DNA of 64,000 bases from Bryobacterales bacterium (GTDB taxonomy: Bacteria; Acidobacteriota; Terriglobia; Bryobacterales; UBA6623). The notes below the pieces were generated by a model. The model did no database searches. It was not told the DNA's origin and saw only the letters and a program-made list of their open reading frames with translations. The stretch is taken from the NCBI GenBank assembly GCA_965242705.1, contig OZ251486.1:202736-266735 (forward strand), given 5' to 3'. Numbering within the stretch: position 1 is the first letter of the stretch; every line of letters starts with the position of its first letter. Positions 17,662 to 64,000 of this stretch are shown here, in pieces. The position numbers were made by a program, and so were the translations under genes.

Positions 17662-19272
<1,611 letters not shown>

Positions 19273-24806: not shown

Positions 24807-24998
24807 GGAAGGCGCGGAGAATAAGGGGGAGAGCGATGAGCCGGCGGACGTTTGCGGATATGGAGTACGAAGGGAAGAAAAAACAGACGAGGCGGGAGAA
24901 GTTTCTGGGGCGGATGGAGGCGTTGATTCCCTGGCAGCGGCTGGAGGAGCGCATCCGCCCGTATTACCCGCAAGCGGGGCGGGGGCGGCGAACGAACT
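24807..24998 (+). mobile_element. IS5-family insertion sequence remnant (left terminal inverted repeat plus the 5' end of the transposase gene), truncated at the CRISPR boundary
   Basis: GGAAGGCGCGGAGAATAAGGGGGA at 24807 resembles the IS5 terminal inverted repeat as I recall it (GGAAGGTGCGAATAAGCGGGGA). Twenty-nine nt later an ATG opens an IS5/InsH-type (DUF772) transposase N-terminus. Homology stops near 24988, about 10 nt before the first CRISPR repeat. No right end and no DDE domain are present. Confidence 0.75.
24836..24991 (+). pseudogene. truncated IS5-family (DDE_Tnp_1/DUF772) transposase; only about the first 52 codons remain
   Basis: The product MSRRTFADMEYEGKKKQTRREKFLGRMEALIPWQRLEERIRPYYPQAGRGRR matches the conserved N-terminal pattern FADxEYxxKxKxTRREKFLxEMExxxPWxxLxxxIxPxYPKAGxGRP of IS5-group transposases. 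The reading frame then runs straight into CRISPR repeat sequence (…TNCFNGAGVFRPRK). Confidence 0.75.
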
Positions 24999-30224: not shown

Positions 30225-30332
30225 CAATCCCAGCCCGACTTCGACGACGAAGACATCTTCGCTTCAATGGGGCCGGGGTCTTTCGACCCCGGAAATCAAT
30301 CCCAGCCCGACTTCGACGACGAAGACATCTTC
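30225..30332 (-). repeat. tandem duplication of one spacer-repeat unit inside the array
   Basis: The spacer CAATCCCAGCCCGACTTCGACGACGAAGACATCTTC occurs at 30225-30260 and again, identically, at 30297-30332, in adjacent units. Confidence 0.95.
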
Positions 30333-33300
30333 GCTTCAATGGGGCCGGGGTCTTTCGACCCCGGAAATGGGGGGCGGTGAGGTGAAGGTGTTGATAGCGT
30401 CAGGCTTCAATGGGGCCGGGGTCTTTCGACCCCGGAAATGCGCCGGGGGTCGATTGTGATAATTGCGGTTGCCGTGCTTCAATGGGGCCGGGGTCTTTCG
30501 ACCCCGGAAATGACTGGATTGCCATGCAGCAGCAAAAGCAAGCCGCCGGCTTCAATGGGGCCGGGGTCTTTCGACCCCGGAAATGCCTGACGCCATGCCC
30601 CATCCGAAGCAATACATCGTCGCTTCAATGGGGCCGGGGTCTTTCGACCCCGGAAATCTGCATTGCGCCATTCCGTGGAGTCCAAGCCGTGGCGGGCTTC
30701 AATGGGGCCGGGGTCTTTCGACCCCGGAAATCGGGGGCGGTCGTTCGGGCGGCCGCTCGGCGGTCGCGCTTCAATGGGGCCGGGGTCTTTCGACCCCGGA
30801 AATCCAAGCAGCCCGATGGGCCGCCAGCGAAAACCAAAAGGCTTCAATGGGGCCGGGGTCTTTCGACCCCGGAAATGCCTTCGAGCGGCGCGAATCGCAA
30901 GGCGCAATCACCGCTTCAATGGGGCCGGGGTCTTTCGACCCCGGAAATGAAGAAATGGAAACTGATCTTCCAAACCCAAAACTGCTTCAATGGGGCCGGG
31001 GTCTTTCGACCCCGGAAATGCGCCGGCAGCCATCCAAGCGGCGCTGAAGCGCCTCGCTTCAATGGGGCCGGGGTCTTTCGACCCCGGAAATCAGGTCGGA
31101 CGGCTCAACTCCGTCTTGAATCCCTCGCTTCAATGGGGCCGGGGTCTTTCGACCCCGGAAATCAGCGGCTCCCCAAGCACCAGAGACGCCGGATCGTAAG
31201 CTTCAATGGGGCCGGGGTCTTTCGACCCCGGAAATCGGCTTGGGGGTCGGCGTAATCGGAGACGGCTTCGTCGCTTCAATGGGGCCGGGGTCTTTCGACC
31301 CCGGAAATGCGTGTCCCATCCCAAGCAAACGAGTACCGGGTCGATGCTTCAATGGGGCCGGGGTCTTTCGACCCCGGAAATGGCGCCAACTGCGACCGGC
31401 CGCCCCATGACGCCGGTTGCTTCAATGGGGCCGGGGTCTTTCGACCCCGGAAATGCGTTCAACCGCATTTGATTTTGGCTGATGAGCCTTCGGCTTCAAT
31501 GGGGCCGGGGTCTTTCGACCCCGGAAATCGGGGGGTGTCGCATGATCCGCCGCGGGACCGTAATCGCTTCAATGGGGCCGGGGTCTTTCGACCCCGGAAA
31601 TATAGCCCAAGCGGTCTATCGCGGCTACGCGGTCATCGCTTCAATGGGGCCGGGGTCTTTCGACCCCGGAAATGGGCTTTGGCGATCGCGAGGCGGCGGA
31701 GGCCTGGGGCGCTTCAATGGGGCCGGGGTCTTTCGACCCCGGAAATGGGAAAGAAAAATGACGAATCGCGGCGAAGCGGTGGCTTCAATGGGGCCGGGGT
31801 CTTTCGACCCCGGAAATGCCGAGATGTTCCGTTTTCAGGAGTTAGGCAGCCGCGCTTCAATGGGGCCGGGGTCTTTCGACCCCGGAAATCCGCTGGTCGG
31901 GCTGTGGGCCGACAGCAACCGCTTCGCTTCAATGGGGCCGGGGTCTTTCGACCCCGGAAATATCCGGCGCTTGCGGCCCGGCGCCGCTGCCGGGCGGGCT
32001 TCAATGGGGCCGGGGTCTTTCGACCCCGGAAATCACCAGCGGCGCTTGCAGCGCGGAAACGCTCGACTGGCTTCAATGGGGCCGGGGTCTTTCGACCCCG
32101 GAAATGCCTGGAGATAAGCAATGAGACGTACGTATACGTCGTGCTTCAATGGGGCCGGGGTCTTTCGACCCCGGAAATTTGGTCTTGGTGTCGGTCTTGG
32201 CGGCGGCCGCATACGGCTTCAATGGGGCCGGGGTCTTTCGACCCCGGAAATGCGATGCGGGCGAGCAGCGCCGCTTTCTCCGTTTGGCTTCAATGGGGCC
32301 GGGGTCTTTCGACCCCGGAAATCTGCCCAGTCGCCTTTGGTATGCCGAAGGCAGATACGCTTCAATGGGGCCGGGGTCTTTCGACCCCGGAAATGTGCAG
32401 GGCGCAGAGAAACCCGGCGGTGGCAAGATAGCTTCAATGGGGCCGGGGTCTTTCGACCCCGGAAATGTTCAGCGCCGCATCATCGCGGCGCGAACAACCG
32501 GCCCGGCTTCAATGGGGCCGGGGTCTTTCGACCCCGGAAATGCGCCGTATCGGAAACGGAAAAGATGCCAAATCCGATAGCTTCAATGGGGCCGGGGTCT
32601 TTCGACCCCGGAAATCAGTCGAGCGTTTCCGCGCTGCAAGCGCCGGCGGTGCTTCAATGGGGCCGGGGTCTTTCGACCCCGGAAATACGCGCATTGGCGG
32701 AACGAGTTCGTGTAGGTACGAGCTTCAATGGGGCCGGGGTCTTTCGACCCCGGAAATCAGAAAATGATCGGGCAGCTAAACCAGCTTCGGCAGGCTTCAA
32801 TGGGGCCGGGGTCTTTCGACCCCGGAAATGCGCTCATAGACAGTAAGCTGCACGCGCCCGTCATCGCTTCAATGGGGCCGGGGTCTTTCGACCCCGGAAA
32901 TCGCCGCCTGCTGCGCGTTGCCGCGCCGCTTCGCGGTGCTTCAATGGGGCCGGGGTCTTTCGACCCCGGAAATTCCAACTGCAGGCGCGATTTGACTTGC
33001 GGCGCGATGCTTCAATGGGGCCGGGGTCTTTCGACCCCGGAAATGCCTTCCCCCTTGCCCTCCGCGCCGTCGGAGGCCAAGCTTCAATGGGGCCGGGGTC
33101 TTTCGACCCCGGAAATCGCCATTGCCGGCGTTACGGCTGCGATGCTTGCGGGTGCTTCAATGGGGCCGGGGTCTTTCGACCCCGGAAATGGCGGCGAAGC
33201 AGGCCGAGATCGAAGCGCTGGAAGGCGCTTCAATGGGGCCGGGGTCTTTCGACCCCGGAAATGCCGAATCCGCGCGTTGCCAACTCCCGCATATACTCCG

Positions 33301-36300: not shown

Positions 36301-39300
36301 ATCGTCTGCTTCGGCGAATGTTCCGTAATGCAATTGCTTCAATGGGGCCGGGGTCTTTCGACCCCGGAAATGTGGCCTTTGCAGCGGATAACGACGGCGA
36401 CTTCGCCGCTTCAATGGGGCCGGGGTCTTTCGACCCCGGAAATGCGGCTCCTTCTGCCAATGCCAGGGATTACCCTGCCCCGCTTCAATGGGGCCGGGGT
36501 CTTTCGACCCCGGAAATGCGGTCAGCGCCGTCCGCGAAGAAGCGGACGACGCCGCTTCAATGGGGCCGGGGTCTTTCGACCCCGGAAATGGGTTGATCCA
36601 CGGCACTCGCGCCGCTTGGCTCTCGCTTCAATGGGGCCGGGGTCTTTCGACCCCGGAAATATGCGGCTGCGCTCCAGGTCCTCGGCTCCGCGCTCGAGCT
36701 TCAATGGGGCCGGGGTCTTTCGACCCCGGAAATGCGACGCTGCCAAAGCGGTACTGGACGCGCGCCGAGGGCTTCAATGGGGCCGGGGTCTTTCGACCCC
36801 GGAAATGGCGCGGTTCGGCGCCCCGCCCGCATTCCCAAGACCAGCTTCAATGGGGCCGGGGTCTTTCGACCCCGGAAATTCGCTGGCTATCGCCGGCGCG
36901 CTGAGCGGCGCTGTCGCTTCAATGGGGCCGGGGTCTTTCGACCCCGGAAATCTGCCGCCATGCCGGATTACTGGAAGGGCTGGGTGGAGCTTCAATGGGG
37001 CCGGGGTCTTTCGACCCCGGAAATGACGTGATGATCGCATGGGCCGGCGATCCCGCGCTGGCTTCAATGGGGCCGGGGTCTTTCGACCCCGGAAATGGTT
37101 CGTCGGCACACAATCAGGATAGCGCTTACGGCACGCTTCAATGGGGCCGGGGTCTTTCGACCCCGGAAATATCCGCTCGTGCGCCAACCAAAGACATCGC
37201 GGCTGCCGCTTCAATGGGGCCGGGGTCTTTCGACCCCGGAAATGCGACCGGCTACGGCATGGGCATGGCTGACCACCTTGCTTCAATGGGGCCGGGGTCT
37301 TTCGACCCCGGAAATTCGAAGACGGCTGGCAACAGGTCAAGGTCTCCGGCGCTTCAATGGGGCCGGGGTCTTTCGACCCCGGAAATGTCGCAACGGCTGC
37401 CGGTTACGCCGCGCGCTGCAAGGCTTCAATGGGGCCGGGGTCTTTCGACCCCGGAAATACGCGCCACATCACGGAACAAAACCCCGCGCTGTTGGGCTTC
37501 AATGGGGCCGGGGTCTTTCGACCCCGGAAATGCGCATTACGGAGCGCGGCGTGGATGCGGTTGCCGCGCTTCAATGGGGCCGGGGTCTTTCGACCCCGGA
37601 AATCTGCGTGGCGGTCACTACCGGAACGAATACGGCTTCGCTTCAATGGGGCCGGGGTCTTTCGACCCCGGAAATGCGCATCAACCTGCCCCTGTTGCCT
37701 CAGAACCAAGAGGCTTCAATGGGGCCGGGGTCTTTCGACCCCGGAAATATGGATGGGATCGGAAGCCCCGGCTGCGGTATCCGGCTTCAATGGGGCCGGG
37801 GTCTTTCGACCCCGGAAATATGATGTGCGCCAAGCCTTCGCACGGCCCGGCGCTGCTTCAATGGGGCCGGGGTCTTTCGACCCCGGAAATCAGTGGCAAA
37901 GCGGAGGCAACGTCAGCGCCGGATGGGCTTCAATGGGGCCGGGGTCTTTCGACCCCGGAAATGGGAGCGCTTGTTGCACTTTTCCAAAACCACAGACATG
38001 CTTCAATGGGGCCGGGGTCTTTCGACCCCGGAAATGCGCATGGTCGGTATCCGTAGTCAATGGGCTGGGGCGCTTCAATGGGGCCGGGGTCTTTCGACCC
38101 CGGAAATATGCCCTTGGTGACGGCTTCGGACAGCCAGTGCGTGCTTCAATGGGGCCGGGGTCTTTCGACCCCGGAAATCGGAACCACAGTCGCCGCTTGG
38201 CGGAAAGCAGCAAAGCTTCAATGGGGCCGGGGTCTTTCGACCCCGGAAATGGGTGCCTTTTGGCGCATGTTTAGAAGCAGCGTCCAGCTTCAATGGGGCC
38301 GGGGTCTTTCGACCCCGGAAATCTGAGGTTGACGGCCGTCATTTTGTGCGCTTTGGCGGCTTCAATGGGGCCGGGGTCTTTCGACCCCGGAAATGATTTT
38401 GGCGGCGGTCATTGGTCTTGCTCTCGGAAAGCTTCAATGGGGCCGGGGTCTTTCGACCCCGGAAATGAAAGACATCGAACGCGCCGAATGGGACGCCTAC
38501 GGCTTCAATGGGGCCGGGGTCTTTCGACCCCGGAAATACGACAAACCCGTACGCATTGTCTCGAATATCCAAGTGCTTCAATGGGGCCGGGGTCTTTCGA
38601 CCCCGGAAATGCCATCGCATCGGCCACCTCGATGACTTTCTTTGCGGCTTCAATGGGGCCGGGGTCTTTCGACCCCGGAAATGCGAATGGCGAAAAGCAT
38701 ATCGCGCCGTACTGCGGGCTTCAATGGGGCCGGGGTCTTTCGACCCCGGAAATCGGACGCGATGGGCGTTCGGGGAACCAACCGCAAGGCTTCAATGGGG
38801 CCGGGGTCTTTCGACCCCGGAAATGCGACAAATGCGACGATTTCTAATCCTCGCCACGCTGCTTCAATGGGGCCGGGGTCTTTCGACCCCGGAAATGCGT
38901 GTCCCATCCCAAGCAAACGAGTACCGGGTCGATGCTTCAATGGGGCCGGGGTCTTTCGACCCCGGAAATCAGCCGCCCGGCTTCCGTTGCCCATTGCAAC
39001 GGCCCGCTTCAATGGGGCCGGGGTCTTTCGACCCCGGAAATGGCGGACGCTTGGACGGCGCCGAGCGGGAGTTGAACGCTTCAATGGGGCCGGGGTCTTT
39101 CGACCCCGGAAATATGAGTCCTTCCTTTCGGTTATCTCCACCGCAGCCTGCTTCAATGGGGCCGGGGTCTTTCGACCCCGGAAATAAGGTCAACGCAAGC
39201 GTCGTTGACGGAATCCATGCGGCTTCAATGGGGCCGGGGTCTTTCGACCCCGGAAATCCCCGCGCCGGATCAGGTCCCGACCGACCAGGCCGAGCTTCAA

Positions 39301-40559: not shown

Positions 40560-40989
40560 GCTGATGGCGATTGCGATGCCGTCCGCCGCTGCAGCGCTTC
40601 AATGGGGCCGGGGTCTTTCGACCCCGGAAATGCGCCTGCCGCTGTCGCAACGGCTGCCGGTTCCGCCGCTTCAATGGGGCCGGGGTCTTTCGACCCCGGA
40701 AATATGATCTCGATGCTGTTGCTGATCTCCGCCAGCGAGCTTCAATGGGGCCGGGGTCTTTCGACCCCGGAAATGCTGATGGCGATTGCGATGCCGTCCG
40801 CCGCTGCAGCGCTTCAATGGGGCCGGGGTCTTTCGACCCCGGAAATGCGCCTGCCGCTGTCGCAACGGCTGCCGGTTCCGCCGCTTCAATGGGGCCGGGG
40901 TCTTTCGACCCCGGAAATATGATCTCGATGCTGTTGCTGATCTCCGCCAGCGAGCTTCAATGGGGCCGGGGTCTTTCGACCCCGGAAAT
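40560..40989 (-). repeat. tandem duplication of a three-unit (215-bp) spacer-repeat block inside the array
   Basis: The spacers GCTGATGGCGATTGCGATGCCGTCCGCCGCTGCAGC, GCGCCTGCCGCTGTCGCAACGGCTGCCGGTTCCGCC and ATGATCTCGATGCTGTTGCTGATCTCCGCCAGCGA (40560-40774 with their repeats) recur in the same order at 40775-40989. Confidence 0.95.
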
Positions 40990-46900: not shown

Positions 46901-49900
46901 TTCGACCCCGGAAATCTACAAGCTGCGTTGCGTGTTCGGCGCGCAGGTGATGCTTCAATGGGGCCGGGGTCTTTCGACCCCGGAAATCCAAGTGGGAAGC
47001 GCTGGTCGCGCGCACGCTGCAAAGCTTCAATGGGGCCGGGGTCTTTCGACCCCGGAAATCTCGTTGGCCGCCCGGTTGCCGATTACCCAAGCGTGCCGCT
47101 TCAATGGGGCCGGGGTCTTTCGACCCCGGAAATTTGCAGCGCGCGGCGGAACCGGCAGCCGTTGCGACGCGCTTCAATGGGGCCGGGGTCTTTCGACCCC
47201 GGAAATTGGCCGTAAGTCGCTGAAAACGCGGCACTTACAAAAGCTTCAATGGGGCCGGGGTCTTTCGACCCCGGAAATCCCGACGCCGATGCCGACCCGC
47301 GCCGAAACCGCAATGCTTCAATGGGGCCGGGGTCTTTCGACCCCGGAAATGCGCCCGCCGTCGTGCGCATGGCGGCCGCCCGGCGGCTTCAATGGGGCCG
47401 GGGTCTTTCGACCCCGGAAATAAACGGATTTGAAGAAGTTTCGCGCTCGGATAACAGCTTCAATGGGGCCGGGGTCTTTCGACCCCGGAAATGTCAAGGA
47501 ATGCGAATGGACGATCACGCTCGAACCCGCTTCAATGGGGCCGGGGTCTTTCGACCCCGGAAATGCAGGAGATCGCTGGTTCGATTCCAGCCGCCCAGAC
47601 GCTTCAATGGGGCCGGGGTCTTTCGACCCCGGAAATCTGACTCACCCGCGCGATCTGCCGACGAAAGCCTTGCGCTTCAATGGGGCCGGGGTCTTTCGAC
47701 CCCGGAAATCGGCAAGCAAACCAGCCCGGGATAAACAAACATAACGCTTCAATGGGGCCGGGGTCTTTCGACCCCGGAAATGCCTCGAACGCCGAGACCC
47801 TGCCTGAAAAAACTTGCAGCTTCAATGGGGCCGGGGTCTTTCGACCCCGGAAATGGCGCGGCGGCCTTCGGCGACGGTGACGAAAGAGGCGCTTCAATGG
47901 GGCCGGGGTCTTTCGACCCCGGAAATGCGATCTGTACGAAGCAGGCGTTGCTGGACATTTGGCTTCAATGGGGCCGGGGTCTTTCGACCCCGGAAATGCC
48001 TGCCGGCGCAAGCGGCAACGAGAGCTTGATCGGCTTCAATGGGGCCGGGGTCTTTCGACCCCGGAAATTCGCTACTACATCGCTCGACTTGTAAGCCGGC
48101 TTGTGCTTCAATGGGGCCGGGGTCTTTCGACCCCGGAAATGGGTCTTGCGCGCGGGAAGCAATTCGCCGCTCCGCTCCGCTTCAATGGGGCCGGGGTCTT
48201 TCGACCCCGGAAATGATCTCGAACCGCACGATCCAGCGGCGCAACGTGGGGCTTCAATGGGGCCGGGGTCTTTCGACCCCGGAAATGCAGCGGAACGCAT
48301 CTGATTGGATGGCGGCAGAGGAGCTTCAATGGGGCCGGGGTCTTTCGACCCCGGAAATCGCCTTACGCCGAACCGTTGGCCAAGCAGCCCAACGGCTTCA
48401 ATGGGGCCGGGGTCTTTCGACCCCGGAAATGTCTCGGATGTCGAAGAATCCGGCTTGCCCCATGTTGCTTCAATGGGGCCGGGGTCTTTCGACCCCGGAA
48501 ATCTCCGCTTCGGCTGAAGATGGAAGCTGTCAGCCGGCGCTTCAATGGGGCCGGGGTCTTTCGACCCCGGAAATCGACCGCATGAAGAGGTCGCGCGACG
48601 GGTGGCAGCGGCTTCAATGGGGCCGGGGTCTTTCGACCCCGGAAATATCGGAGTTGCCGCCATTCGCCTGTCCGCCCGTCCAGCTTCAATGGGGCCGGGG
48701 TCTTTCGACCCCGGAAATAAGAGCAGACCTTCACCATGCCGGATGTCGAGGATCAGCTTCAATGGGGCCGGGGTCTTTCGACCCCGGAAATGAGCATCTG
48801 CAGGACGGGATGACATGACGCCTCAGGCTTCAATGGGGCCGGGGTCTTTCGACCCCGGAAATTCTGCAGCAGCTTTCCAACAACATCCGCGCCGGGAACG
48901 CTTCAATGGGGCCGGGGTCTTTCGACCCCGGAAATAAGCGGCGCCCGCATGCCCTCAGGCGCCGCTTCCGACGCTTCAATGGGGCCGGGGTCTTTCGACC
49001 CCGGAAATACGAATGGCCGCCACGAGAACGCAACTCGACCAACTGCTTCAATGGGGCCGGGGTCTTTCGACCCCGGAAATGTGATCGACGAGATACCGGT
49101 AATCCCGCTGGCGGTCGCTTCAATGGGGCCGGGGTCTTTCGACCCCGGAAATCCGGCGTCTTGCAGCGCCGTCAACCCATGCGTGTACACGCTTCAATGG
49201 GGCCGGGGTCTTTCGACCCCGGAAATGCGATATGGTCGGCGCTGTCGGAAACGGCGAACAAGCTTCAATGGGGCCGGGGTCTTTCGACCCCGGAAATCTA
49301 CCGCCGCAAGACCGGCAAGTGGTTTGTCGTCCTGGCTTCAATGGGGCCGGGGTCTTTCGACCCCGGAAATGCCGGCTATAGCGTGGTCGTCGAGCCGGTC
49401 GAGGTGCTTCAATGGGGCCGGGGTCTTTCGACCCCGGAAATTTGCGCGCCTGCCGTCAACGTACCAATGGCAGTCCCGCGCTTCAATGGGGCCGGGGTCT
49501 TTCGACCCCGGAAATGCGATGTCCACGTCGATCTCGCGCGTCAACTCCTCGCTTCAATGGGGCCGGGGTCTTTCGACCCCGGAAATAAACCGCTCGCGCA
49601 GCCACATCTCGGCGATCAGGTCGCTTCAATGGGGCCGGGGTCTTTCGACCCCGGAAATGCGGTCGGAACCTGATCGTGCGCCAGCAGCGGCCCCTCGCTT
49701 CAATGGGGCCGGGGTCTTTCGACCCCGGAAATCACGAGCGCCAACTCCGCCGCACAATCGCCCTGTGGCTTCAATGGGGCCGGGGTCTTTCGACCCCGGA
49801 AATGCCTCATGGCGCTGATCGTCGATGGCGATGACCCAATGCTTCAATGGGGCCGGGGTCTTTCGACCCCGGAAATGTCGATATCCCAATAGGAATCCCC

Positions 49901-52900
49901 TCCACAGTGGCCGCTTCAATGGGGCCGGGGTCTTTCGACCCCGGAAATCTGCTTCTCGATCTTCACCGGCTCCGAGGCGAGAGCGCTTCAATGGGGCCGG
50001 GGTCTTTCGACCCCGGAAATTCCTCGATGTGGTCTTGCTGCTCGGAGCGACCGCCGCTTCAATGGGGCCGGGGTCTTTCGACCCCGGAAATCAGAAGCAA
50101 ACGTCACGCCCGTTAGCAGTGCGCCGCGCTTCAATGGGGCCGGGGTCTTTCGACCCCGGAAATGCGCATCAACGAAACCGCCACGGCCGTCGACCGCGAC
50201 GCTTCAATGGGGCCGGGGTCTTTCGACCCCGGAAATTCTCCAGTGAGGGTCAGCTTGATCCGATCAAGCTGCTGCTTCAATGGGGCCGGGGTCTTTCGAC
50301 CCCGGAAATATCAGTATCGACGCCAATGACCTGGAGCGCCTGCGCGCTTCAATGGGGCCGGGGTCTTTCGACCCCGGAAATCTATGAGCTTCGCAGTTCG
50401 ACGCCCGATGCCGATGGGCTTCAATGGGGCCGGGGTCTTTCGACCCCGGAAATGGGCAACGAATCCGCCTGTGCGGGCAAGCGTCAACGGCTTCAATGGG
50501 GCCGGGGTCTTTCGACCCCGGAAATGGAATCCGTAAGCTCTGCGCCGCCCAGCGCCACATGGCTTCAATGGGGCCGGGGTCTTTCGACCCCGGAAATGCG
50601 CCGGGCGCGGTTCTGCTGAACGGCGCGCATGCGGCTTCAATGGGGCCGGGGTCTTTCGACCCCGGAAATCGGTAGTGCCGTCAAGCTCCATTTCGATGAC
50701 CAAGCTGCTTCAATGGGGCCGGGGTCTTTCGACCCCGGAAATCCGGCTGCGCCCGAACCGCCAACCCAGCCCAATCAGGCTTCAATGGGGCCGGGGTCTT
50801 TCGACCCCGGAAATTTCCAAGCCGCCAAAGAATGGGCCTTCGCCAACGACGCTTCAATGGGGCCGGGGTCTTTCGACCCCGGAAATGAATCGGTATTCGA
50901 ATGCTTCGGCGTCCGGCTCCAGCTTCAATGGGGCCGGGGTCTTTCGACCCCGGAAATATCCTCGTCGCCGGCCGCACGAAGCGAACCCTCTCCGCTTCAA
51001 TGGGGCCGGGGTCTTTCGACCCCGGAAATGCCGACCTCCTCGAACACGGCGTTCTGCGTATCCCAGCTTCAATGGGGCCGGGGTCTTTCGACCCCGGAAA
51101 TAGGATCGCTTGCCGCGCAACGAGGCCGGGCAAATCGACTAGCTTCAATGGGGCCGGGGTCTTTCGACCCCGGAAATTTCGGCCTCGCCGAATACGCGCT
51201 GGTTGATATCACGGCTTCAATGGGGCCGGGGTCTTTCGACCCCGGAAATCTCGCTGACAGTCGTCGGCAAGGGCAACCGCCAGCGGCTTCAATGGGGCCG
51301 GGGTCTTTCGACCCCGGAAATGAGCGCCGCGCGCGCCTGCCTGCGCATCGACGAAGCGCTTCAATGGGGCCGGGGTCTTTCGACCCCGGAAATGCCGGGT
51401 TCCGACTTCGCTCTCGCCTCGGAGCCGGTGCTTCAATGGGGCCGGGGTCTTTCGACCCCGGAAATAGCCACTCGCAAATGCCTCCGAAACCCGAAGAGCG
51501 GCTTCAATGGGGCCGGGGTCTTTCGACCCCGGAAATCTGATATCATGCAAGACACCAACGCCCGCCGCCTGGCTTCAATGGGGCCGGGGTCTTTCGACCC
51601 CGGAAATTCGGCTAACGGTGTTAGTAGCGTGACGGTATTACCACGCTTCAATGGGGCCGGGGTCTTTCGACCCCGGAAATCCGGTTCCAACCACAACCCT
51701 ATGGGGAACAGAGATAGTGCTTCAATGGGGCCGGGGTCTTTCGACCCCGGAAATCGACCTGCTCGCCGCCTTGATAGCGAGCGAAAACCCGCTTCAATGG
51801 GGCCGGGGTCTTTCGACCCCGGAAATTGGCCGCCGAAACGGCCGAGATCAAGCATCTACTCGCTTCAATGGGGCCGGGGTCTTTCGACCCCGGAAATGCC
51901 GAAAGAGACGCCCTCGAGGCCGAAGCCGAGGCGGCTTCAATGGGGCCGGGGTCTTTCGACCCCGGAAATATGCGCAACGCATACGGGCCGCGCGCCACTA
52001 CGACCCCGCTTCAATGGGGCCGGGGTCTTTCGACCCCGGAAATAGTGATGGGCTTTGCCGGGCGCATTACGGCGCCGGCGCTTCAATGGGGCCGGGGTCT
52101 TTCGACCCCGGAAATTGGTTGTTGAAGTGGAATTCCGCGAGACGGCTTTCGAGCTTCAATGGGGCCGGGGTCTTTCGACCCCGGAAATAGCCGAATTCCG
52201 AAAAAAAGTGCGAATTCGCAAAAAGCTTCAATGGGGCCGGGGTCTTTCGACCCCGGAAATACGCCGGGGCGGACGCCAGCTACCGCATCGTCCCCACGCT
52301 TCAATGGGGCCGGGGTCTTTCGACCCCGGAAATACCGGAACCCCCAGCGACCGCGCAGGCGCTCCAGCGGGCTTCAATGGGGCCGGGGTCTTTCGACCCC
52401 GGAAATATCGAGTCATCCGCTTCGACGGCATAACGCCGCTGACGCTTCAATGGGGCCGGGGTCTTTCGACCCCGGAAATCCGGACTCACGATGCAAGACC
52501 GCCGCCGCATTTTGGGCTTCAATGGGGCCGGGGTCTTTCGACCCCGGAAATTCGCCGCCGTCCTTGTATCCTTGCCCGCGAAAACTGCTTCAATGGGGCC
52601 GGGGTCTTTCGACCCCGGAAATACGGCCAAGATCACGCTCTACAAGAGCGAATGGGCCGCTTCAATGGGGCCGGGGTCTTTCGACCCCGGAAATACGGGC
52701 AACCCCGCGCCCGCACTGGCCGCCCGCTTGGGCTTCAATGGGGCCGGGGTCTTTCGACCCCGGAAATTAGTGACATCCATTGCTCTTCGAGGCGGAAGAG
52801 ACAGCTTCAATGGGGCCGGGGTCTTTCGACCCCGGAAATAGCCAGCGGTCATGTCCATCGCGGGTCTGGTGGTAGTAGCTTCAATGGGGCCGGGGTCTTT

Positions 52901-55900
52901 CGACCCCGGAAATCTTGCGTTATCCTCGACAGAGACGAAGCCGGATGCATGGCTTCAATGGGGCCGGGGTCTTTCGACCCCGGAAATGACGGCCCTGATG
53001 GGAATGCCTATATATACGAGCCGGCTTCAATGGGGCCGGGGTCTTTCGACCCCGGAAATCGATCCATACTGAAACCGTGGCGGCGAAACGCAGCCGCTTC
53101 AATGGGGCCGGGGTCTTTCGACCCCGGAAATTGGCTTGGCCAGGTGCTTCGGCGCGAAAAAAGAGGAAGCTTCAATGGGGCCGGGGTCTTTCGACCCCGG
53201 AAATTCCGACTCCTGCCGAGGATGCTTCTGACAGCGACTGCTTCAATGGGGCCGGGGTCTTTCGACCCCGGAAATCGCCTGCAACCAATGGCAGGAGAGA
53301 AAGGACTGACCGCTTCAATGGGGCCGGGGTCTTTCGACCCCGGAAATGAGGCTGAGAGGGTAAAGGAAAACCCGCCGCCCCGGGCTTCAATGGGGCCGGG
53401 GTCTTTCGACCCCGGAAATCCAGAGACCGCGCCGGCGAATGGGCCGTTGCCGTGGGCTTCAATGGGGCCGGGGTCTTTCGACCCCGGAAATACGAGCCTC
53501 CGCCGAACGCGCCGCACAAGCCAGCAAGCTTCAATGGGGCCGGGGTCTTTCGACCCCGGAAATATCGAAGCACACGGCGCGCTTGCCATCGAAAGCGATG
53601 GCTTCAATGGGGCCGGGGTCTTTCGACCCCGGAAATATGGCCGCCAGTGAATATCAGGGCGCCGCGCCGTCGCTTCAATGGGGCCGGGGTCTTTCGACCC
53701 CGGAAATCGGCCTTGAGTGCTTGCGCCATCGGTTCGATGAATTCGCTTCAATGGGGCCGGGGTCTTTCGACCCCGGAAATAAGCGGCAATCGACGCCGTT
53801 GCGGACAGCATCCGCGCTTCAATGGGGCCGGGGTCTTTCGACCCCGGAAATCGTCTTCCAGGATTTCCACTTCGAGATTCGCGAAGAAGCTTCAATGGGG
53901 CCGGGGTCTTTCGACCCCGGAAATGGCCGCTGATCAGATGCGACACGCTGTCGATCATGAAGCTTCAATGGGGCCGGGGTCTTTCGACCCCGGAAATCAA
54001 AAGGAGAAAGATCATGGCGAACATCGCAACCGCCGCTTCAATGGGGCCGGGGTCTTTCGACCCCGGAAATTCATCGACACCGTTGACCAACTGGCTGGCT
54101 TCCAACGCTTCAATGGGGCCGGGGTCTTTCGACCCCGGAAATGCCTGATCCGTATGGACGCATGCCAGTTGCTCCATTGCTTCAATGGGGCCGGGGTCTT
54201 TCGACCCCGGAAATTCGCGCCTGCCACCGGTTGCAGGCGTCTTTGGGATCGCTTCAATGGGGCCGGGGTCTTTCGACCCCGGAAATAAGCGTCAAGCGGG
54301 TATTCGGCGGGATATCCACAAGCTTCAATGGGGCCGGGGTCTTTCGACCCCGGAAATCCCAATTGGTGACCGAAGCCAGCTATGACGTGCTCGCTTCAAT
54401 GGGGCCGGGGTCTTTCGACCCCGGAAATGCCACGCTGATGGCGCGAATCATCGACGAAGCGCTGCTTCAATGGGGCCGGGGTCTTTCGACCCCGGAAATC
54501 GGCAAGCTCGATAGCGATGCCGTGGCGGCCCTCCCAGCTTCAATGGGGCCGGGGTCTTTCGACCCCGGAAATGGCGCTCCGGCGGGACGGGTTGCCAATG
54601 CAGCCGCGCTTCAATGGGGCCGGGGTCTTTCGACCCCGGAAATTGAAGATGGAAGCTGTCAGCCGGCGGACTTGGGGCAGCTTCAATGGGGCCGGGGTCT
54701 TTCGACCCCGGAAATAAGACGAAGAGGTCGCCGAGATCACCCGGCAGGTTTTGCTTCAATGGGGCCGGGGTCTTTCGACCCCGGAAATTCGGAATGCGGC
54801 GAAGACCGCTATGACCGCAAGACAGGCTTCAATGGGGCCGGGGTCTTTCGACCCCGGAAATGATGCGAAAAGATCGCACGGCTGACGGCTGAGGCGGGCT
54901 TCAATGGGGCCGGGGTCTTTCGACCCCGGAAATTGGAAAGGAACCAATAAGCCGAAAATGGCGCTGAACGCTTCAATGGGGCCGGGGTCTTTCGACCCCG
55001 GAAATAAGTGGCGAAAACTCTGCACCGATAACCTCGGAGCCGCTTCAATGGGGCCGGGGTCTTTCGACCCCGGAAATTGGCTTGGCCAGGTGCTTCGGCC
55101 TGGCGGGGTTGATGGCTTCAATGGGGCCGGGGTCTTTCGACCCCGGAAATGACTACAGCTTTCTGCTCATGGCTGACAGCGCCGCCGCTTCAATGGGGCC
55201 GGGGTCTTTCGACCCCGGAAATCCGCGCCGAAATCGAGAAGAATGCCCGCTTCATGGTGCTTCAATGGGGCCGGGGTCTTTCGACCCCGGAAATCTTGCG
55301 CTTCTTCGGAGGCGGCCCTATCCGCAACGGCGGCGCTTCAATGGGGCCGGGGTCTTTCGACCCCGGAAATGCGCTACCACCTCCCGCAATACCACCGGCT
55401 TGAGCTGCTTCAATGGGGCCGGGGTCTTTCGACCCCGGAAATGGCTCAGGCGCGTTGAGAAGCCTCACTGTGATGGCGGGGCTTCAATGGGGCCGGGGTC
55501 TTTCGACCCCGGAAATCGGATGTATTCTCTTAGGGTAGGAGATATGCGGGGACGCTTCAATGGGGCCGGGGTCTTTCGACCCCGGAAATGTTGATTCGCT
55601 TGATCGCCCGCGCCGCTTCATAGGCGCTTCAATGGGGCCGGGGTCTTTCGACCCCGGAAATTCGTCATAAGCATATAGAATAGTAATCATTATTGTTGGC
55701 TTCAATGGGGCCGGGGTCTTTCGACCCCGGAAATGGGACTTCCCCGTTACGGGATCCTTGTCCCGCGGGTTGCTTCAATGGGGCCGGGGTCTTTCGACCC
55801 CGGAAATCGCTTCGCTTGAGTCCGCCATACGTGAGGCGGTCGAGCTTCAATGGGGCCGGGGTCTTTCGACCCCGGAAATATGGCGACTCAGGACAAAATC

Positions 55901-58900
55901 GAAAACCTCCTCATGCTTCAATGGGGCCGGGGTCTTTCGACCCCGGAAATCATCATGGGGCGGCGCAACCCGCCGCCCCGCACCTCGCTTCAATGGGGCC
56001 GGGGTCTTTCGACCCCGGAAATATTACTCCGCCGGAGCCGGCCATGCCGTCATCATAGCTTCAATGGGGCCGGGGTCTTTCGACCCCGGAAATCTCGTCT
56101 CGCCGCGCAGCACGCCGCAAAGCCTCAGCTAGCTTCAATGGGGCCGGGGTCTTTCGACCCCGGAAATAGGACGAGCAATGAGCGGAGCCGATTGGTGCAT
56201 AGCGCTTCAATGGGGCCGGGGTCTTTCGACCCCGGAAATCCCCCATCCGGCGCCACCAGCGGGCGCCGTTCTTGGCGCTTCAATGGGGCCGGGGTCTTTC
56301 GACCCCGGAAATGTTGTACCGCGAAAGCGAAAGCCGCCCTCCGGTAACCGCTTCAATGGGGCCGGGGTCTTTCGACCCCGGAAATAAGACCTGCTCGTCG
56401 AAATCGACTACGGAGAGACGCGCTTCAATGGGGCCGGGGTCTTTCGACCCCGGAAATCTCAGGCCGCGCCTGTCGAGTGCCAATCGCGCGGTTGGCTTCA
56501 ATGGGGCCGGGGTCTTTCGACCCCGGAAATCCATGCTGACCGACGCCGTGTACAGGATATGCAAAGCGCTTCAATGGGGCCGGGGTCTTTCGACCCCGGA
56601 AATGCGAAGGCCTCGAAATCCTCTACCGCGAATCCTGGGGCTTCAATGGGGCCGGGGTCTTTCGACCCCGGAAATGCGCAGCCGTCGTCAATCACGGCTT
56701 TTTCAAAGACCGAGGCTTCAATGGGGCCGGGGTCTTTCGACCCCGGAAATTGGCTTGTGCGGCGCGTTCGGCGGAGGCTCGTTCATGGTCGCTTCAATGG
56801 GGCCGGGGTCTTTCGACCCCGGAAATGCCGTCGCCGTTGTCGAGGCTTTGCAAGCGCCAGTGCTTCAATGGGGCCGGGGTCTTTCGACCCCGGAAATGCG
56901 GCAAGCGCGAACGGCGTGGATGCCGCCTTCGTCGCTTCAATGGGGCCGGGGTCTTTCGACCCCGGAAATCAGCAGGATTGCTCGCCGCCATCGTCAGCGG
57001 CCAATGGCTTCAATGGGGCCGGGGTCTTTCGACCCCGGAAATATGCGCAAAGCTATCGAGAACGCCATGCGCGCCCTCGCTTCAATGGGGCCGGGGTCTT
57101 TCGACCCCGGAAATCCGGCTGCATCGAGCAGACCGTCCACTGGCGGCACGGCTTCAATGGGGCCGGGGTCTTTCGACCCCGGAAATTCCTTTCGGCCTCC
57201 GCGCATCGGGCCACGCTGCACCGCTTCAATGGGGCCGGGGTCTTTCGACCCCGGAAATTCGAAGAAGAACCCCAACCCCGCAATCCAGATCAAGGCTTCA
57301 ATGGGGCCGGGGTCTTTCGACCCCGGAAATCGGCCTGCTTGGAGCGCGGCGGCGCGATGTTTTCGGCGCTTCAATGGGGCCGGGGTCTTTCGACCCCGGA
57401 AATCGGCTTGGATTCGCTGCTGATTTCGGTGGCGATCAGCGCTTCAATGGGGCCGGGGTCTTTCGACCCCGGAAATACCGCACTGATGATGCTGGCCGAT
57501 GCCGTGCGCAAAGCTTCAATGGGGCCGGGGTCTTTCGACCCCGGAAATCCACCGAAGGAGACCATGACCATGCCCGAACACCCCGCTTCAATGGGGCCGG
57601 GGTCTTTCGACCCCGGAAATCTACTGGGCTACGATTGGCGCATCGTGCCCGGCGGCGCTTCAATGGGGCCGGGGTCTTTCGACCCCGGAAATTCGTTCAG
57701 CGCCGATGCTGCTTCCGCCCATGCCGCAGCTTCAATGGGGCCGGGGTCTTTCGACCCCGGAAATGGGCAATCCAATCGCTCAGCATGGCGCGCCCGAACA
57801 GCTTCAATGGGGCCGGGGTCTTTCGACCCCGGAAATGTCTGCGAATTCCGGGACATCTCCTACAGCATCCCCGCTTCAATGGGGCCGGGGTCTTTCGACC
57901 CCGGAAATGGAGGTGCAGACGAGCACCTTGTCGAAGCCGACGGCGCTTCAATGGGGCCGGGGTCTTTCGACCCCGGAAATCACCTTCGAGCCGTGCGCCC
58001 TGCCCATGCTCGCCTCGCTTCAATGGGGCCGGGGTCTTTCGACCCCGGAAATTCTTCTTCGGGGGAGTCGGGTTTCTCCAGGCCGACTTGCTTCAATGGG
58101 GCCGGGGTCTTTCGACCCCGGAAATTGCCTCCGACGATGAGGCATACGGCTCCGTCACGCTTGCTTCAATGGGGCCGGGGTCTTTCGACCCCGGAAATGG
58201 GTTCTTATCGCTTCGGCGTGGCGGCGCGGGACGTTGCTTCAATGGGGCCGGGGTCTTTCGACCCCGGAAATCGGCCATATCACCGCCTGCCATGCGGCCG
58301 CCTGCCTCGCTTCAATGGGGCCGGGGTCTTTCGACCCCGGAAATGTGGGCGCGCCAGGTCATTTTGCGGGTTGCCGCCCACATGCTTCAATGGGGCCGGG
58401 GTCTTTCGACCCCGGAAATAATGCGCAAATGGGATGGGCAGTCCGCATGCGGGTAGCTTCAATGGGGCCGGGGTCTTTCGACCCCGGAAATCCTATCGAG
58501 TGCCAATCGCGCAACTGCAAGCATCCGCCGCTTCAATGGGGCCGGGGTCTTTCGACCCCGGAAATGCGCCGCCCGTGACGCCCTCGCCGCTTATGAGGCG
58601 CCGCTTCAATGGGGCCGGGGTCTTTCGACCCCGGAAATGTTGACATCGACGACGGCGACGACAACCCCATCGACCTCGCTTCAATGGGGCCGGGGTCTTT
58701 CGACCCCGGAAATATCGCTGGCGGTCAGACCGCTTGGCCATCACTGCGCGGCTTCAATGGGGCCGGGGTCTTTCGACCCCGGAAATCGGTCACTGAAACC
58801 AGCGCAAGACTCGATACTGGATTGCTTCAATGGGGCCGGGGTCTTTCGACCCCGGAAATGCCACCGCCGGTTACCAGCCGAACGACTGGCCGACCGCTTC

Positions 58901-61900
58901 AATGGGGCCGGGGTCTTTCGACCCCGGAAATACCGGGCGGGCGGCCTATGCGGCTGCGCCGCTTGCGGCTTCAATGGGGCCGGGGTCTTTCGACCCCGGA
59001 AATTTCGCGGTAGAGGATTTCGAGGCCTTCGCGGATGTAGCTTCAATGGGGCCGGGGTCTTTCGACCCCGGAAATGTCACAGCGTCGGGTTTTGGCGTCG
59101 AGTTCGGGGCAGCTTCAATGGGGCCGGGGTCTTTCGACCCCGGAAATGGGGCGTCTCCGGCAGTGGGTCGGTGGCGGCGTCGAGCTTCAATGGGGCCGGG
59201 GTCTTTCGACCCCGGAAATGCTCTGGTTGAGGTTGCGAAACGGCGGGCGGAAACCGCTTCAATGGGGCCGGGGTCTTTCGACCCCGGAAATAGATGATTT
59301 TGGATTGCCGCAGGCTTGAAGCCACGAGCTTCAATGGGGCCGGGGTCTTTCGACCCCGGAAATTTGTGCGGCGCGTTCGGCGGAGGCTCGTTCATGGTCG
59401 CTTCAATGGGGCCGGGGTCTTTCGACCCCGGAAATCGGTTCCAACCACAACCATATGGGGAACCGAGATAGTGCTTCAATGGGGCCGGGGTCTTTCGACC
59501 CCGGAAATCTCGTGTGGGATGAGACGGAAAACTACCGCATCGAGCTTCAATGGGGCCGGGGTCTTTCGACCCCGGAAATGGCAACTACGTCTTCACGATC
59601 ACCTTCGTCAACTCGCTTCAATGGGGCCGGGGTCTTTCGACCCCGGAAATAAGACCTGCTCGTCGAAATCGACTACGGAGAGACGCGCTTCAATGGGGCC
59701 GGGGTCTTTCGACCCCGGAAATAATCGTCGGCCATCGCACCATCGACGGAGTGCCGCTGCTTCAATGGGGCCGGGGTCTTTCGACCCCGGAAATGCCCTA
59801 CGTCGACCCCTACGCCCCGCCGGTTATCGAGCTTCAATGGGGCCGGGGTCTTTCGACCCCGGAAATTGGCAATAACCCCCCCCCGCGCCGGAAGCCGCAG
59901 CCGCTTCAATGGGGCCGGGGTCTTTCGACCCCGGAAATGCCGCCTCAACCGCATCGATCAACGCTCTACCGTTGGCTTCAATGGGGCCGGGGTCTTTCGA
60001 CCCCGGAAATCACGGTCTCGCCGCGCCCCATCACCATCGAGACGCCGCTTCAATGGGGCCGGGGTCTTTCGACCCCGGAAATCGGCACGGAGGCTGTCGA
60101 GTTCGCTCTCGACGCGGCGCTTCAATGGGGCCGGGGTCTTTCGACCCCGGAAATACATGCCAGGAGACGATCTCGACGCAGCCGCCCGCGCTTCAATGGG
60201 GCCGGGGTCTTTCGACCCCGGAAATCTTCTACCGCAGAGAGGAGCGGACGTAATGGCTACCGGCTTCAATGGGGCCGGGGTCTTTCGACCCCGGAAATGG
60301 ATTCGACGGCTGCCAGCAGCCGAGCAACCCCGCGGCTTCAATGGGGCCGGGGTCTTTCGACCCCGGAAATCGCCGCCAGTGTTTTTTCCAGTCGAGGCAC
60401 CGCCGGGCTTCAATGGGGCCGGGGTCTTTCGACCCCGGAAATGCCTTGATCGAGATCGACGCTTCCGAAGCCGTCACCGTCGCTTCAATGGGGCCGGGGT
60501 CTTTCGACCCCGGAAATATATGGCAAAGTGCCGATGTGGAAAAGCAACCGAAAGCTTCAATGGGGCCGGGGTCTTTCGACCCCGGAAATAACTTCACGAA
60601 CGAGCAGTGGAAAGCGCTGACTCTGGGCTTCAATGGGGCCGGGGTCTTTCGACCCCGGAAATGTTTCCTTTTTGCAATGCTCGGCAAAGGCTTTGCGGCT
60701 TCAATGGGGCCGGGGTCTTTCGACCCCGGAAATGTTGAAACCGCGGGTTCAGTCGCAAAACGGGACAAGCTGCTTCAATGGGGCCGGGGTCTTTCGACCC
60801 CGGAAATGGCTGCGGCGACGTTCTCCACCGAGACGCTGAAGCCGGCTTCAATGGGGCCGGGGTCTTTCGACCCCGGAAATCAGCCCGGCGCAGGCGCATT
60901 GGCTGGCGGCGTTATCGCTTCAATGGGGCCGGGGTCTTTCGACCCCGGAAATACGAGAGCGAATGGGCCGAGGTCTTCGCCCTGGCGGCTTCAATGGGGC
61001 CGGGGTCTTTCGACCCCGGAAATCCGATGCCTGAACCTCATGAAAACCCTGCGCCGGCGGCTTCAATGGGGCCGGGGTCTTTCGACCCCGGAAATATGCT
61101 GACGCCGACGAATCCGCTCGCATCGCCATGCGGCTTCAATGGGGCCGGGGTCTTTCGACCCCGGAAATCCCAGATCGTCGAAATCAAGCATGGCTACACG
61201 CCGGCGCTTCAATGGGGCCGGGGTCTTTCGACCCCGGAAATACATCGCCGAGCGGGGACAGCGGCAACCCATCGTGGGCTTCAATGGGGCCGGGGTCTTT
61301 CGACCCCGGAAATGAGGCTTTGCGGCGTGCTGCGCGGCGGGATGAGAGCGCTTCAATGGGGCCGGGGTCTTTCGACCCCGGAAATATGGGATAGCCTCCT
61401 GCATCGTTCAATTCTCCGAACGCTTCAATGGGGCCGGGGTCTTTCGACCCCGGAAATGGGACGGCTCCGCGGGATTCAGCATCGGCGCAGCGGTGCTTCA
61501 ATGGGGCCGGGGTCTTTCGACCCCGGAAATCCGCGATTATCCGGACGCCGATCAAATCGCCAAATGGCGCGCTTCAATGGGGCCGGGGTCTTTCGACCCC
61601 GGAAATCAAGGCGACGGGGTGCTCGTCCGGCAGCACGACGGGCTTCAATGGGGCCGGGGTCTTTCGACCCCGGAAATAAGCCGCTGGTTGACTGGGCGGA
61701 AGCGTTGGAACAGGCTTCAATGGGGCCGGGGTCTTTCGACCCCGGAAATGAGCGGCTTGGGAACGGATACGGGAACGCTCGAACCCGGCTTCAATGGGGC
61801 CGGGGTCTTTCGACCCCGGAAATTTGCCCGGCAGGCCGCACGGGGCGCCTTGGATAGCAGCTTCAATGGGGCCGGGGTCTTTCGACCCCGGAAATGGCCG

Positions 61901-64000
61901 CCAAGAAAGACGACCTGCTGCAGCGCTTGCACGGCTTCAATGGGGCCGGGGTCTTTCGACCCCGGAAATCGCCCGGCGCGGATCGCCGCGAACGACCGCG
62001 AAGCGGGCTTCAATGGGGCCGGGGTCTTTCGACCCCGGAAATCCGCCCGGCGCGGATCGCCGCGAACGACCGCGAAGCGGCTTCAATGGGGCCGGGGTCT
62101 TTCGACCCCGGAAATCCCAGCGAACCCGCCCAGACGCCCAGACCGCCGGCGCTTCAATGGGGCCGGGGTCTTTCGACCCCGGAAATCGTGCCGCCAAAGA
62201 TAAATAGACTAGCCGCCAAGCAGCTTCAATGGGGCCGGGGTCTTTCGACCCCGGAAATATCGTAGCCGCGCTGTCGAGCCGTGCCGCCAAAGATGCTTCA
62301 ATGGGGCCGGGGTCTTTCGACCCCGGAAATCCGTTGGTCTGCCAGGGCGGGGCAGCGAGGAGGATGCTGCTTCAATGGGGCCGGGGTCTTTCGACCCCGG
62401 AAATGCCTTGAAGCCGAACCGCAATCTGCGCATCAGCGGCGCTTCAATGGGGCCGGGGTCTTTCGACCCCGGAAATGCGACTGAACCCAATGAAACCCCT
62501 TGCAGTTTTGCCCGCTTCAATGGGGCCGGGGTCTTTCGACCCCGGAAATCCGCGAAGAGCCGCCTCGCCAAGCGGCTGCGAACCGCTTCAATGGGGCCGG
62601 GGTCTTTCGACCCCGGAAATTCGTTGCCGTGCGTTGGCGATGGCGGAATGCTTCCGGGCTTCAATGGGGCCGGGGTCTTTCGACCCCGGAAATATGGGCC
62701 GCTCGACCCGCCCCGCCGAAGCCCAAGCCGCTTCAATGGGGCCGGGGTCTTTCGACCCCGGAAATGAGCGGTGGGATGCCGATCTGCGCACGATTGTTGC
62801 CGGGCTTCAATGGGGCCGGGGTCTTTCGACCCCGGAAATAGCCGCCCAGACCGCGCGGGAACTCGTCGAAGAGCAGCTTCAATGGGGCCGGGGTCTTTCG
62901 ACCCCGGAAATGCGGCGGCTGCAAGGCGGCGGAACAAGTAGCCGGGGTTGCTTCAATGGGGCCGGGGTCTTTCGACCCCGGAAATCCCCTGGCCAAGTCC
63001 GACTTTCGCCGGGAGGCCGCGCTTCAATGGGGCCGGGGTCTTTCGACCCCGGAAATGCTGCGGTTTTTCGCACCATTGCCTGGGCTTCTTCGCGCTTCAA
63101 TGGGGCCGGGGTCTTTCGACCCCGGAAATTAGCTTGCGCCTCTATGAGGCTAACGATGGCATCCGTGCTTCAATGGGGCCGGGGTCTTTCGACCCCGGAA
63201 ATCACCTTGTCTTGCATTGCCATCGCGAAGTCCCGCCGGCTTCAATGGGGCCGGGGTCTTTCGACCCCGGAAATATCGCCGTCTCTGAACGCATCCGAGG
63301 CTTGGATGCTGCTTCAATGGGGCCGGGGTCTTTCGACCCCGGAAATGCCGTTGCGCACGGCACGCGATACACCGGAGCGGTCGGCTTCAATGGGGCCGGG
63401 GTCTTTCGACCCCGGAAATATCCACGGACTGAGCGAACGAGCCGACGTAGTCCTCGCTTCAATGGGGCCGGGGTCTTTCGACCCCGGAAATGACGCTGCG
63501 ACCGCAAGAGCATATCGAGGCCACGTTGCTTCAATGGGGCCGGGGTCTTTCGACCCCGGAAATGCCCGGCGCGGCTAACCCGCGCTAAGTCGGGCCGGAG
63601 CTTCAATGGGGCCGGGGTCTTTCGACCCCGGAAATCGGCTCCGAAGGCGCTGTTGCCGATTCTGGTGAACGTGCTTCAATGGGGCCGGGGTCTTTCGACC
63701 CCGGAAATGCGGGAGCCGACATCGCACGATGCCGGATGCAGCCTGCTTCAATGGGGCCGGGGTCTTTCGACCCCGGAAATCATCTTCCGCCCGCCTCAAA
63801 CGAACAGAAGGAGTCGGCTTCAATGGGGCCGGGGTCTTTCGACCCCGGAAATCTCCCAATTGGTGACCGAAGCCAGCTATGACGTACTGCTTCAATGGGG
63901 CCGGGGTCTTTCGACCCCGGAAATGCGTTGCCCGGCGCAACAGGCCGAAGATGGATGCCGCTTCAATGGGGCCGGGGTCTTTCGACCCCGGAAATTGGAT

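Follow-up and report, generated by a model that had tools for sequence, protein, structure and literature searches.

Three overlapping spacers in a very long CRISPR array of an uncultured Bryobacterales bacterium probably record repeated type I-G acquisition from one foreign sequence

The 64,000-nucleotide (nt) stretch of a Bryobacterales genome analyzed here (contig OZ251486.1, positions 202,736 to 266,735; hereafter the window) contains a very long CRISPR array, in which three spacers, numbers 394, 439 and 475, overlap within one sequence of 44 nt. The evidence makes it quite probable that these spacers stem from three separate acquisitions by a type I-G system from one foreign stretch of DNA belonging to one invader lineage, with the end next to the protospacer adjacent motif (PAM) fixed by Cas4 and the other end trimmed loosely.

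The oldest of the three, spacer 394, occupies positions 53492-53527 (minus strand, 36 nt) and reads TTGCTGGCTTGTGCGGCGCGTTCGGCGGAGGCTCGT in the sense of the CRISPR RNA (crRNA); spacer 439 lies at 56751-56790 (minus strand, 40 nt; GACCATGAACGAGCCTCCGCCGAACGCGCCGCACAAGCCA), and the newest, spacer 475, at 59364-59399 (minus strand, 36 nt; GACCATGAACGAGCCTCCGCCGAACGCGCCGCACAA). These coordinates and sequences agree exactly with those given in the first-pass annotation of the window, and ungapped comparison of the spacers bears out the relationship described there. Spacers 439 and 475 are identical over 36 nt, having the same last base on the plus strand and starts that are 4 nt apart, while spacer 394 represents the opposite strand and shares 32 nt with spacer 439 and 28 nt with spacer 475, with zero mismatches. 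The three tile a 44-nt composite, TTGCTGGCTTGTGCGGCGCGTTCGGCGGAGGCTCGTTCATGGTC, of which spacer 394 covers positions 1-36. In crRNA sense, spacer 475 reads GACCATGAACGAGCC...GCACAA, spacer 439 is spacer 475 followed by GCCA, and spacer 394 reads TTGCTGGC...GGCTCGT. Spacers 439 and 475 have a common 5' end, with spacer 439 extending 4 nt further at the PAM-distal end, and spacer 394 lies 8 nt out of register with both partners. The triple spans 81 units (indices 394 to 475), where about 80 had been estimated; the 40-nt spacer, which had been singled out as the longest noticed, does belong to the longest class, but it shares that rank with others (5 of 539 spacers have this length).

Because the neighboring spacers are not duplicated along with them, and because the length difference falls at the end that is naturally variable, spacers 394, 439 and 475 are best interpreted as independent acquisitions; three such events from one sequence, on both strands, are thus supported by the sequence data. 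The 8-nt offset argues that spacer 394 would derive from a separate prespacer and is not a flipped copy of one of its partners. Nor are the overlaps of the triple a matter of chance, since 38 spacer pairs in the array have an exact 14-mer in common, compared with 0-5 in 40 shuffled or second-order Markov controls. About 18 overlapping pairs are independent, of which 10 are same-strand and 8 opposite-strand, and if sampling is uniform, this number of pairs corresponds to an effective target pool of about 360 kb and predicts about 0.3 triples with mutual overlap, so that a special hotspot at this locus, as had been suggested in the first-pass annotation, is not needed to explain the triple.

The array extends from position 24999 to 63995 on the minus strand as a single array that continues past the end of the window. 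It comprises 540 repeats and 539 spacers in the window, the true repeat count being at least 540, and 521 of the 540 repeats are identical, the other 19 having a one-base difference. The 36-nt repeat reads GCTTCAATGGGGCCGGGGTCTTTCGACCCCGGAAAT on the plus strand and ATTTCCGGGGTCGAAAGACCCCGGCCCCATTGAAGC in crRNA sense, in which it forms a hairpin, with a stem of 8 bp closed by a GAAA loop, followed by a 12-nt tail that ends in ATTGAAGC, the final three bases being AGC. Spacer lengths range from 34 to 40 nt, with a mode of 36. Spacers near 36 bp and a 36-37-nt hairpin repeat with a 3' tail ending in ATTGAAxC/AGC are features of type I-G arrays, and both are found here. The array is a very large instance of a known CRISPR kind with known behavior.

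A relaxed repeat pattern retrieved 117 loci (denoted by L numbers below) from many phyla, which form one tightly conserved family of 36-37-nt repeats. The exact repeat was not found in GTDB representative genomes or JGI metagenomes; the four closest repeats (33-35 of 36 positions) all come from Bryobacterales metagenome-assembled genomes (MAGs), the best of them matching at 35 of 36. The genes adjoining the related arrays encode Cas8g1/Csx17, Csb1/Cas7g, Csb2, Cas4g/Cas1g and a Cas2-sized open reading frame (ORF) of 97 amino acids. The Cas4g/Cas1g proteins at related arrays scored 779.7 and 731.3 bits against an NCBIfam curated cut-off of 560, the score of 731 being that of the closest relative, and L032, the sole related locus examined in full, contains Cas8g1, Csb1, Csb2 and Cas4g/Cas1g. 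The repeat thus belongs to a family located downstream of type I-G (formerly I-U) cas genes, and, judged by its repeat family, the integrase of this genome would also be of type I-G.

The same loci provide the orientation of the array. In all 40 related loci with a readable flank, Cas4-Cas1 is located at a constant side and on a constant strand, the side corresponding to high window coordinates and the strand being opposite to that of the repeat as written on the plus strand of the window. Because of this synteny, together with the published order of cas genes, leader and array in the I-U system of Geobacter sulfurreducens (PMC6547450), transcription of the array proceeds on the minus strand, with the leader beyond position 64000 and position 24999 as the oldest (trailer) end. 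The Rfam model CRISPR-DR16 (RF01330) also aligned to the minus strand over its full length (37/37; E=1.6e-6), scoring 34.5 bits where the gathering threshold is 35. In type I systems, the PAM-proximal end of a spacer is its 5' end, which adjoins the 5' handle. Given minus-strand transcription, the end common to spacers 439 and 475 is the PAM-proximal end and the variable end is the non-PAM end. The notion that the fixed end would be informative about the anchor of the adaptation machinery therefore gains substance once the orientation of the array is known.

What is known of type I-G adaptation provides a framework for these ends. The PAM of the I-U system is TTN upstream of the protospacer (PMC6547450). 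The Cas4 domain of the I-G enzyme cuts just upstream of the PAM, which reads GAA on the overhang strand and TTC on the protospacer strand, while its Cas1 domain trims the non-PAM end sequence-independently to overhangs of 6-8 nt, some longer ends also being integrated (PMC10504553). Overlapping spacers can be used as read-outs of each other's flanks, and we applied such a flank test to 82 arrays with 2,912 spacers. Family-wide, the 5' flank has T at position -3 in 13 of 19 cases (p=4e-6), T at -2 in 10 of 19 and C at -1 in 13 of 23, and the complete TTN triplet is present in 7 of 19 (p=3e-6). No enrichment of T was found in the 3' flank read-outs of the same arrays. The TTN flank expected of a I-G array is thus present at the level of the repeat family. 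Moreover, among same-strand pairs with exactly one common end, this is the 5' end in four cases and never the 3' end (p=5e-4; 82 arrays). The four are 439/475 and 369/476 of the window, pair 42/52 of L094 and pair 14/47 of L101.

We therefore propose the following sequence of events, in which the PAMs of spacers 394, 439 and 475 and the single invader are inferred. A type I-G Cas4/Cas1-Cas2 integrase would have taken three spacers from one stretch, at least 44 bp long, of the same foreign DNA or of close variants of it, in the order 394, 439, 475. Spacers 439 and 475 would derive from the same strand and the same PAM, at which an exact Cas4 cut would yield an identical start base; this base would end up beside the leader-proximal repeat and the crRNA 5' handle, ATTGAAGC. 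The non-PAM end would have been trimmed irrespective of sequence and with a certain spread, giving a spacer of 40 nt once and of 36 nt once. Spacer 394 would have been taken from the opposite strand by means of a second PAM, beyond the opposite edge of the 44-bp segment, so that the predicted target is 5'-TTN-[44 bp]-NAA-3'. The same invader lineage may also have given rise to spacers 369, 430, 434 and 437, and later to 470, 476, 479 and 502.

Several observations weigh against this interpretation. No cas genes are present in positions 1-24998 of the window. The 120 best homologues of the Cas4g/Cas1g of the closest relative include none assigned to the source chromosome, and two clusters that could have hidden a Cas4g/Cas1g of this chromosome were also without one; a fragmented or more divergent Cas4g/Cas1g gene is possible in this genome, as is an orphan array. 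Within the window itself, TTN is found in three of six reliable PAM-side triplets, and in three of ten when weaker overlaps of 11-12 nt are included; in published I-U data the share of TTN among unique spacers is about 50% (PMC6547450). Terminal overlaps of at least 7 nt among the spacers of the array gave no extension of the composite, which stops at the PAM-proximal end on either side. Finally, the comparison with phage and plasmid collections that had been suggested in the first-pass annotation produced no protospacer match: megablast of the whole array against curated phages and plasmids gave no near-exact hit. A mismatch-tolerant blastn of positions 52000-59999 against phages and plasmids likewise yielded chance-level matches only (E of 0.2 or more).

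The re-sampling is not evenly distributed. Re-sampled partners are separated by a mean index distance of 58, against 179 for random pairs, and none of 20,000 permutations reached 58. Spacers 430, 434, 437 and 439 have as partners 502, 479, 470 and 475, respectively, all within 463-502. The four overlaps among the 400 possible pairs between 430-439 and 463-502 correspond to a local pool of about 4.5 kb. Spacer 430 (56094-56131, minus strand) and spacer 502 (61314-61349) come from opposite strands and overlap by 33 nt with two mismatches. Spacer 434 (56386-56421, minus strand) is identical to spacer 479 (59651-59686), 45 units away, and probably reflects re-acquisition of the same protospacer, since its neighbors are not duplicated. 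Spacer 437 (56604-56639, minus strand) and spacer 470 (59004-59039), again from opposite strands, overlap by 29 nt with zero mismatches. Outside this block, spacer 369 (51681-51718, minus strand, 38 nt) and its newer partner 476 (59436-59472, minus strand, 37 nt), which adjoins spacer 475, have a common PAM-proximal end, a distal difference of 1 nt and two internal mismatches. Because of their two mismatches, 369/476 and 430/502 derive from variant targets; mismatches, one or two in number, are also present in 171/216/306. The clustering, together with the re-sampling of spacers near 439 by spacers near 475, agrees with the earlier proposals of a recurrent invader and of re-sampled neighboring spacers, and it suggests that one recurrent invader lineage, or primed uptake, lies behind the pattern.

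Primed, interference-driven adaptation, in which the older spacers 369, 394 and 430-439 recognized a returning or mutated invader and the new spacers 463-502 were taken from the same small region, is an appreciable possibility that we would not call probable, and it refines the explanation given above without replacing it. The small local pool, as compared with about 360 kb array-wide, speaks for priming, as do the two mismatches in 369/476 and in 430/502, which is how an imperfect old spacer would prime, and the fact that the consecutive units 475 and 476 each re-sample older spacers. Priming has been shown for the G. sulfurreducens I-U system, without strand or location bias (PMC6547450), and the balanced strands of the overlapping pairs fit such unbiased priming. 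However, naive repeated sampling of a small plasmid or a phage of roughly 5 kb would give the same picture, and 439/475, 434/479 and 437/470 match perfectly, with no evident mismatch to act as a trigger.

A sequence common to different mobile elements, or to several copies of one such element, for example a dispersed repeat or a conserved gene start, is an unlikely source of the three spacers. In favor of this explanation, the composite has a strong third-position GC periodicity and its reverse strand reads ACC ATG AAC GAG CCT ..., so that it could be the start of a gene, and conserved genes are common among related elements; the mismatches in 369/476, 430/502 and 171/216/306 also indicate that variant targets were sampled. 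On the other hand, the members of the triple agree without a mismatch wherever they overlap, also in the 4 nt that only spacers 394 and 439 have in common, and the composite is unmatched in IMG/VR, JGI metagenomes, phages and plasmids. The IMG/VR search was performed with the 44-nt composite restricted by amino acid (wobble positions freed) and with a 22-nt exact core, and the JGI search with the wobble-freed 44-nt composite. There is thus no sign of the widespread repeat that the first-pass annotation had named as the finding that would overturn its proposal. The wobble-freed composites of 437/470, 345/365, 406/537, 434/479, 369/476 and 430/502 were not found in IMG/VR either. No spacer of the array recurs in any of the 117 related loci, and none targets positions 1-24998 of the window; an exact 20-mer common to spacer 372 and L077 was dropped as a lead, the match stopping at 20 of 36 nt.

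One could also suppose that recombination within the array copied spacer 439 and that the copy then lost 4 nt where spacer and repeat meet, to become spacer 475; this is very improbable. Segmental duplications do exist in this array (215-217 = 218-220; 72 = 73) and in related arrays, but true duplications copy adjacent units in order, and this is not the case for 439/475, the neighbors 438/474 and 440/476 being unmatched. In addition, the partners are non-collinear (434 to 479, 437 to 470, 439 to 475, 430 to 502), and the 4-nt difference is situated precisely at the end that is expected to vary naturally in length. Three further pairs show this pattern, and two of them have two internal mismatches (369/476 and pair 14/47 of L101) that copying leaves unexplained. 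Finally, a PAM-less type III array, possibly with a reverse transcriptase-Cas1 fusion, in which the shared end would be a preferred RNA or DNA fragment end, is hardly credible: the absence of cas genes from the window and the repeat end ATTGAAGC, a handle-like motif that is also common in type III-associated repeats, would fit it, but this reading, like any RNA-derived one, is rejected on the cas-gene context of the related arrays, since all 40 with a readable flank have Cas4g/Cas1g, L032 adds Csb1, Csb2 and Cas8g, and the T-rich motif is limited to the 5' side.

The PAM-distal end of the spacers also has a sequence feature. The third-from-last spacer base, in crRNA sense, is C in 49% of the 533 unique spacers of the window, against a background of 30%, with A at 9% and T at 11% (chi-square p=2e-23), and this holds irrespective of how long the spacer is. 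The 63 related I-G arrays analyzed show an excess of C as well, which after boundary correction falls at -4 (41%) in some arrays and at -3 in others. The C at -3 is kept in spacers 475 (CAA), 439 (CCA), 394 (CGT), 369 (CGG) and 476 (CCG). As a cause of the 40-nt variant it was discarded, because a model of length and C(-3) raises the expected share of such spacers only from 0.9% to 1.4%. Tentatively, the integrase or a trimming partner might prefer to cut two bases after a C, which would be a second sequence determinant, at the distal end, in type I-G, although we consider this more doubtful than not. Trimming of the non-PAM end in I-G has been described as sequence-independent, and a preference for C near the distal end is not described in the I-G papers (PMC10504553, PMC6547450); in type V-A and V-B systems no PAM-distal motif was seen (PMC9419969). 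This preference may be the only new element of the present finding.

With the I-U/I-G module of G. sulfurreducens, which has a Cas4/Cas1 fusion and Cas2 (PMC6547450), the array shares a repeat that ends in AGC, predominantly 36-bp spacers, an upstream TTN motif and uptake from both strands; a position downstream of cas4/1, cas2 and a leader, uptake that follows PAM density and a capability for priming would be further common properties. The present case differs in being a naturally formed array, with 540 or more repeats, of an uncultured Bryobacterales bacterium, assigned to its type through the repeat family and the cas genes next to related arrays. The fixed, Cas4-cut PAM end and the variable, Cas1-trimmed end resemble the action of the Cas4/1 dual nuclease of the Methanosarcina barkeri I-G system, whose data come from biochemistry on defined substrates and do not include the C(-3) preference of the natural spacers described here (PMC10504553). 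Spacers in both orientations from one protospacer, and overlaps that are common under heavy sampling, are likewise known from the type I-E system of Escherichia coli (Shmakov et al. 2014, PMC4027179), where they were obtained by population sequencing after induced priming and not, as here, from the array of one chromosome. Two nearly co-extensive opposite-strand pairs in the window, 97/105 (32034-32069 and 32616-32650) and 171/306 (37387-37422 and 47134-47170), whose ends agree within 1-2 nt, resemble the "flipped" spacers of E. coli; spacer 394 differs from these in its 8-nt offset, as a separate prespacer would. For a weaker motif at the non-PAM end in a Cas4-containing system there is a precedent in Pyrococcus furiosus (PMC5737086), but its NW motif lies downstream of the protospacer and outside the spacer, whereas the C described here is inside the spacer, at -3 or -4.

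It should be noted that the finding, although real, is ordinary: a shared PAM-anchored end is expected for type I-G, and no new principle is added as it stands. Type I-G is the least studied of the type I subtypes. The triple illustrates the Cas4-Cas1 integrase at work in a wild genome, with a PAM-fixed end and a loosely trimmed other end, in an array that is unusually long, has near-uniform repeats and contains many re-sampling events. Combined with invader sequences, the array would be a rich natural data set on PAM choice, rules of spacer length and possible priming in type I-G systems. If the C rule is true, it and the clustered re-sampling would make the array a natural record of how both spacer ends are chosen.

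The 25 kb before the array contain housekeeping genes, encoding a PSCyt/PSD1 protein, glycogen enzymes, HtrA, GroES/GroEL, an alginate-export protein and an electron transfer flavoprotein. A planctomycete host, which the PSCyt/PSD1 domains had first suggested, was abandoned in favor of Bryobacterales on account of the relatives of the repeat and of GroEL (17671-19269). Directly before the array, at positions 24836-24998 on the plus strand, lies the start of a truncated IS5-family transposase gene (MSRRTFADMEYEGKKKQTRREKFLGRMEALIPWQRLEERIRPYYPQAGRGRRTN), which comprises the first 54 codons and ends exactly at the first repeat. The DNA of this segment is 72% identical to the stretch just upstream of an intact IS5-type DDE transposase ORF in L085; Pfam did not recognize the 54-amino-acid transposase fragment. 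The break of the transposase gene at this junction implies that an event associated with an insertion sequence cut back the array, which was once longer at this side and has lost its original trailer. The closest related array (L042 and L077; Bryobacterales MAG CBDCCP010000003.1, 664001-680000) has 122 repeats, with a repeat identity of 35/36, and is interrupted by an insert of 3.2 kb with a gene for an IstB/IS21-type ATPase. These long arrays seem to be repeated targets of insertion sequences.

Other features of the array are of interest in their own right. In units 50-68 (28601-29934), 19 contiguous repeats, read in crRNA sense, end in T where the others have C (ATTGAAGT) and are flanked on both sides by consensus repeats, which fits a mutation of the leader-proximal repeat that was copied through 19 successive units and was later reverted or recombined away. 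Segmental duplications within the array comprise spacers 215-217, repeated in order as 218-220 (40560-40953), and the identical neighbors 72 and 73 (30225-30332); comparable block duplications are present in related arrays. Spacers 511 and 512 (61970-62079), in consecutive units, cover one 37-nt window with a shift of 1 nt, and spacers 514 and 515 (62187-62294), also consecutive, have a same-strand overlap of 15 nt. These cases suggest either that one DNA fragment was the source of a burst of uptake or that the PAM-side cut slipped by 1 nt. Finally, spacers 312 (47565-47600) and 523 (62840-62875) overlap by 12 nt, and their joint sequence resembles the 3' half of a tRNA gene plus downstream DNA, with a T-arm (GCTGG/TTCGATT/CCAGC) followed by CGCCCAG-A-CC; this site may represent an integrative element's attachment region.

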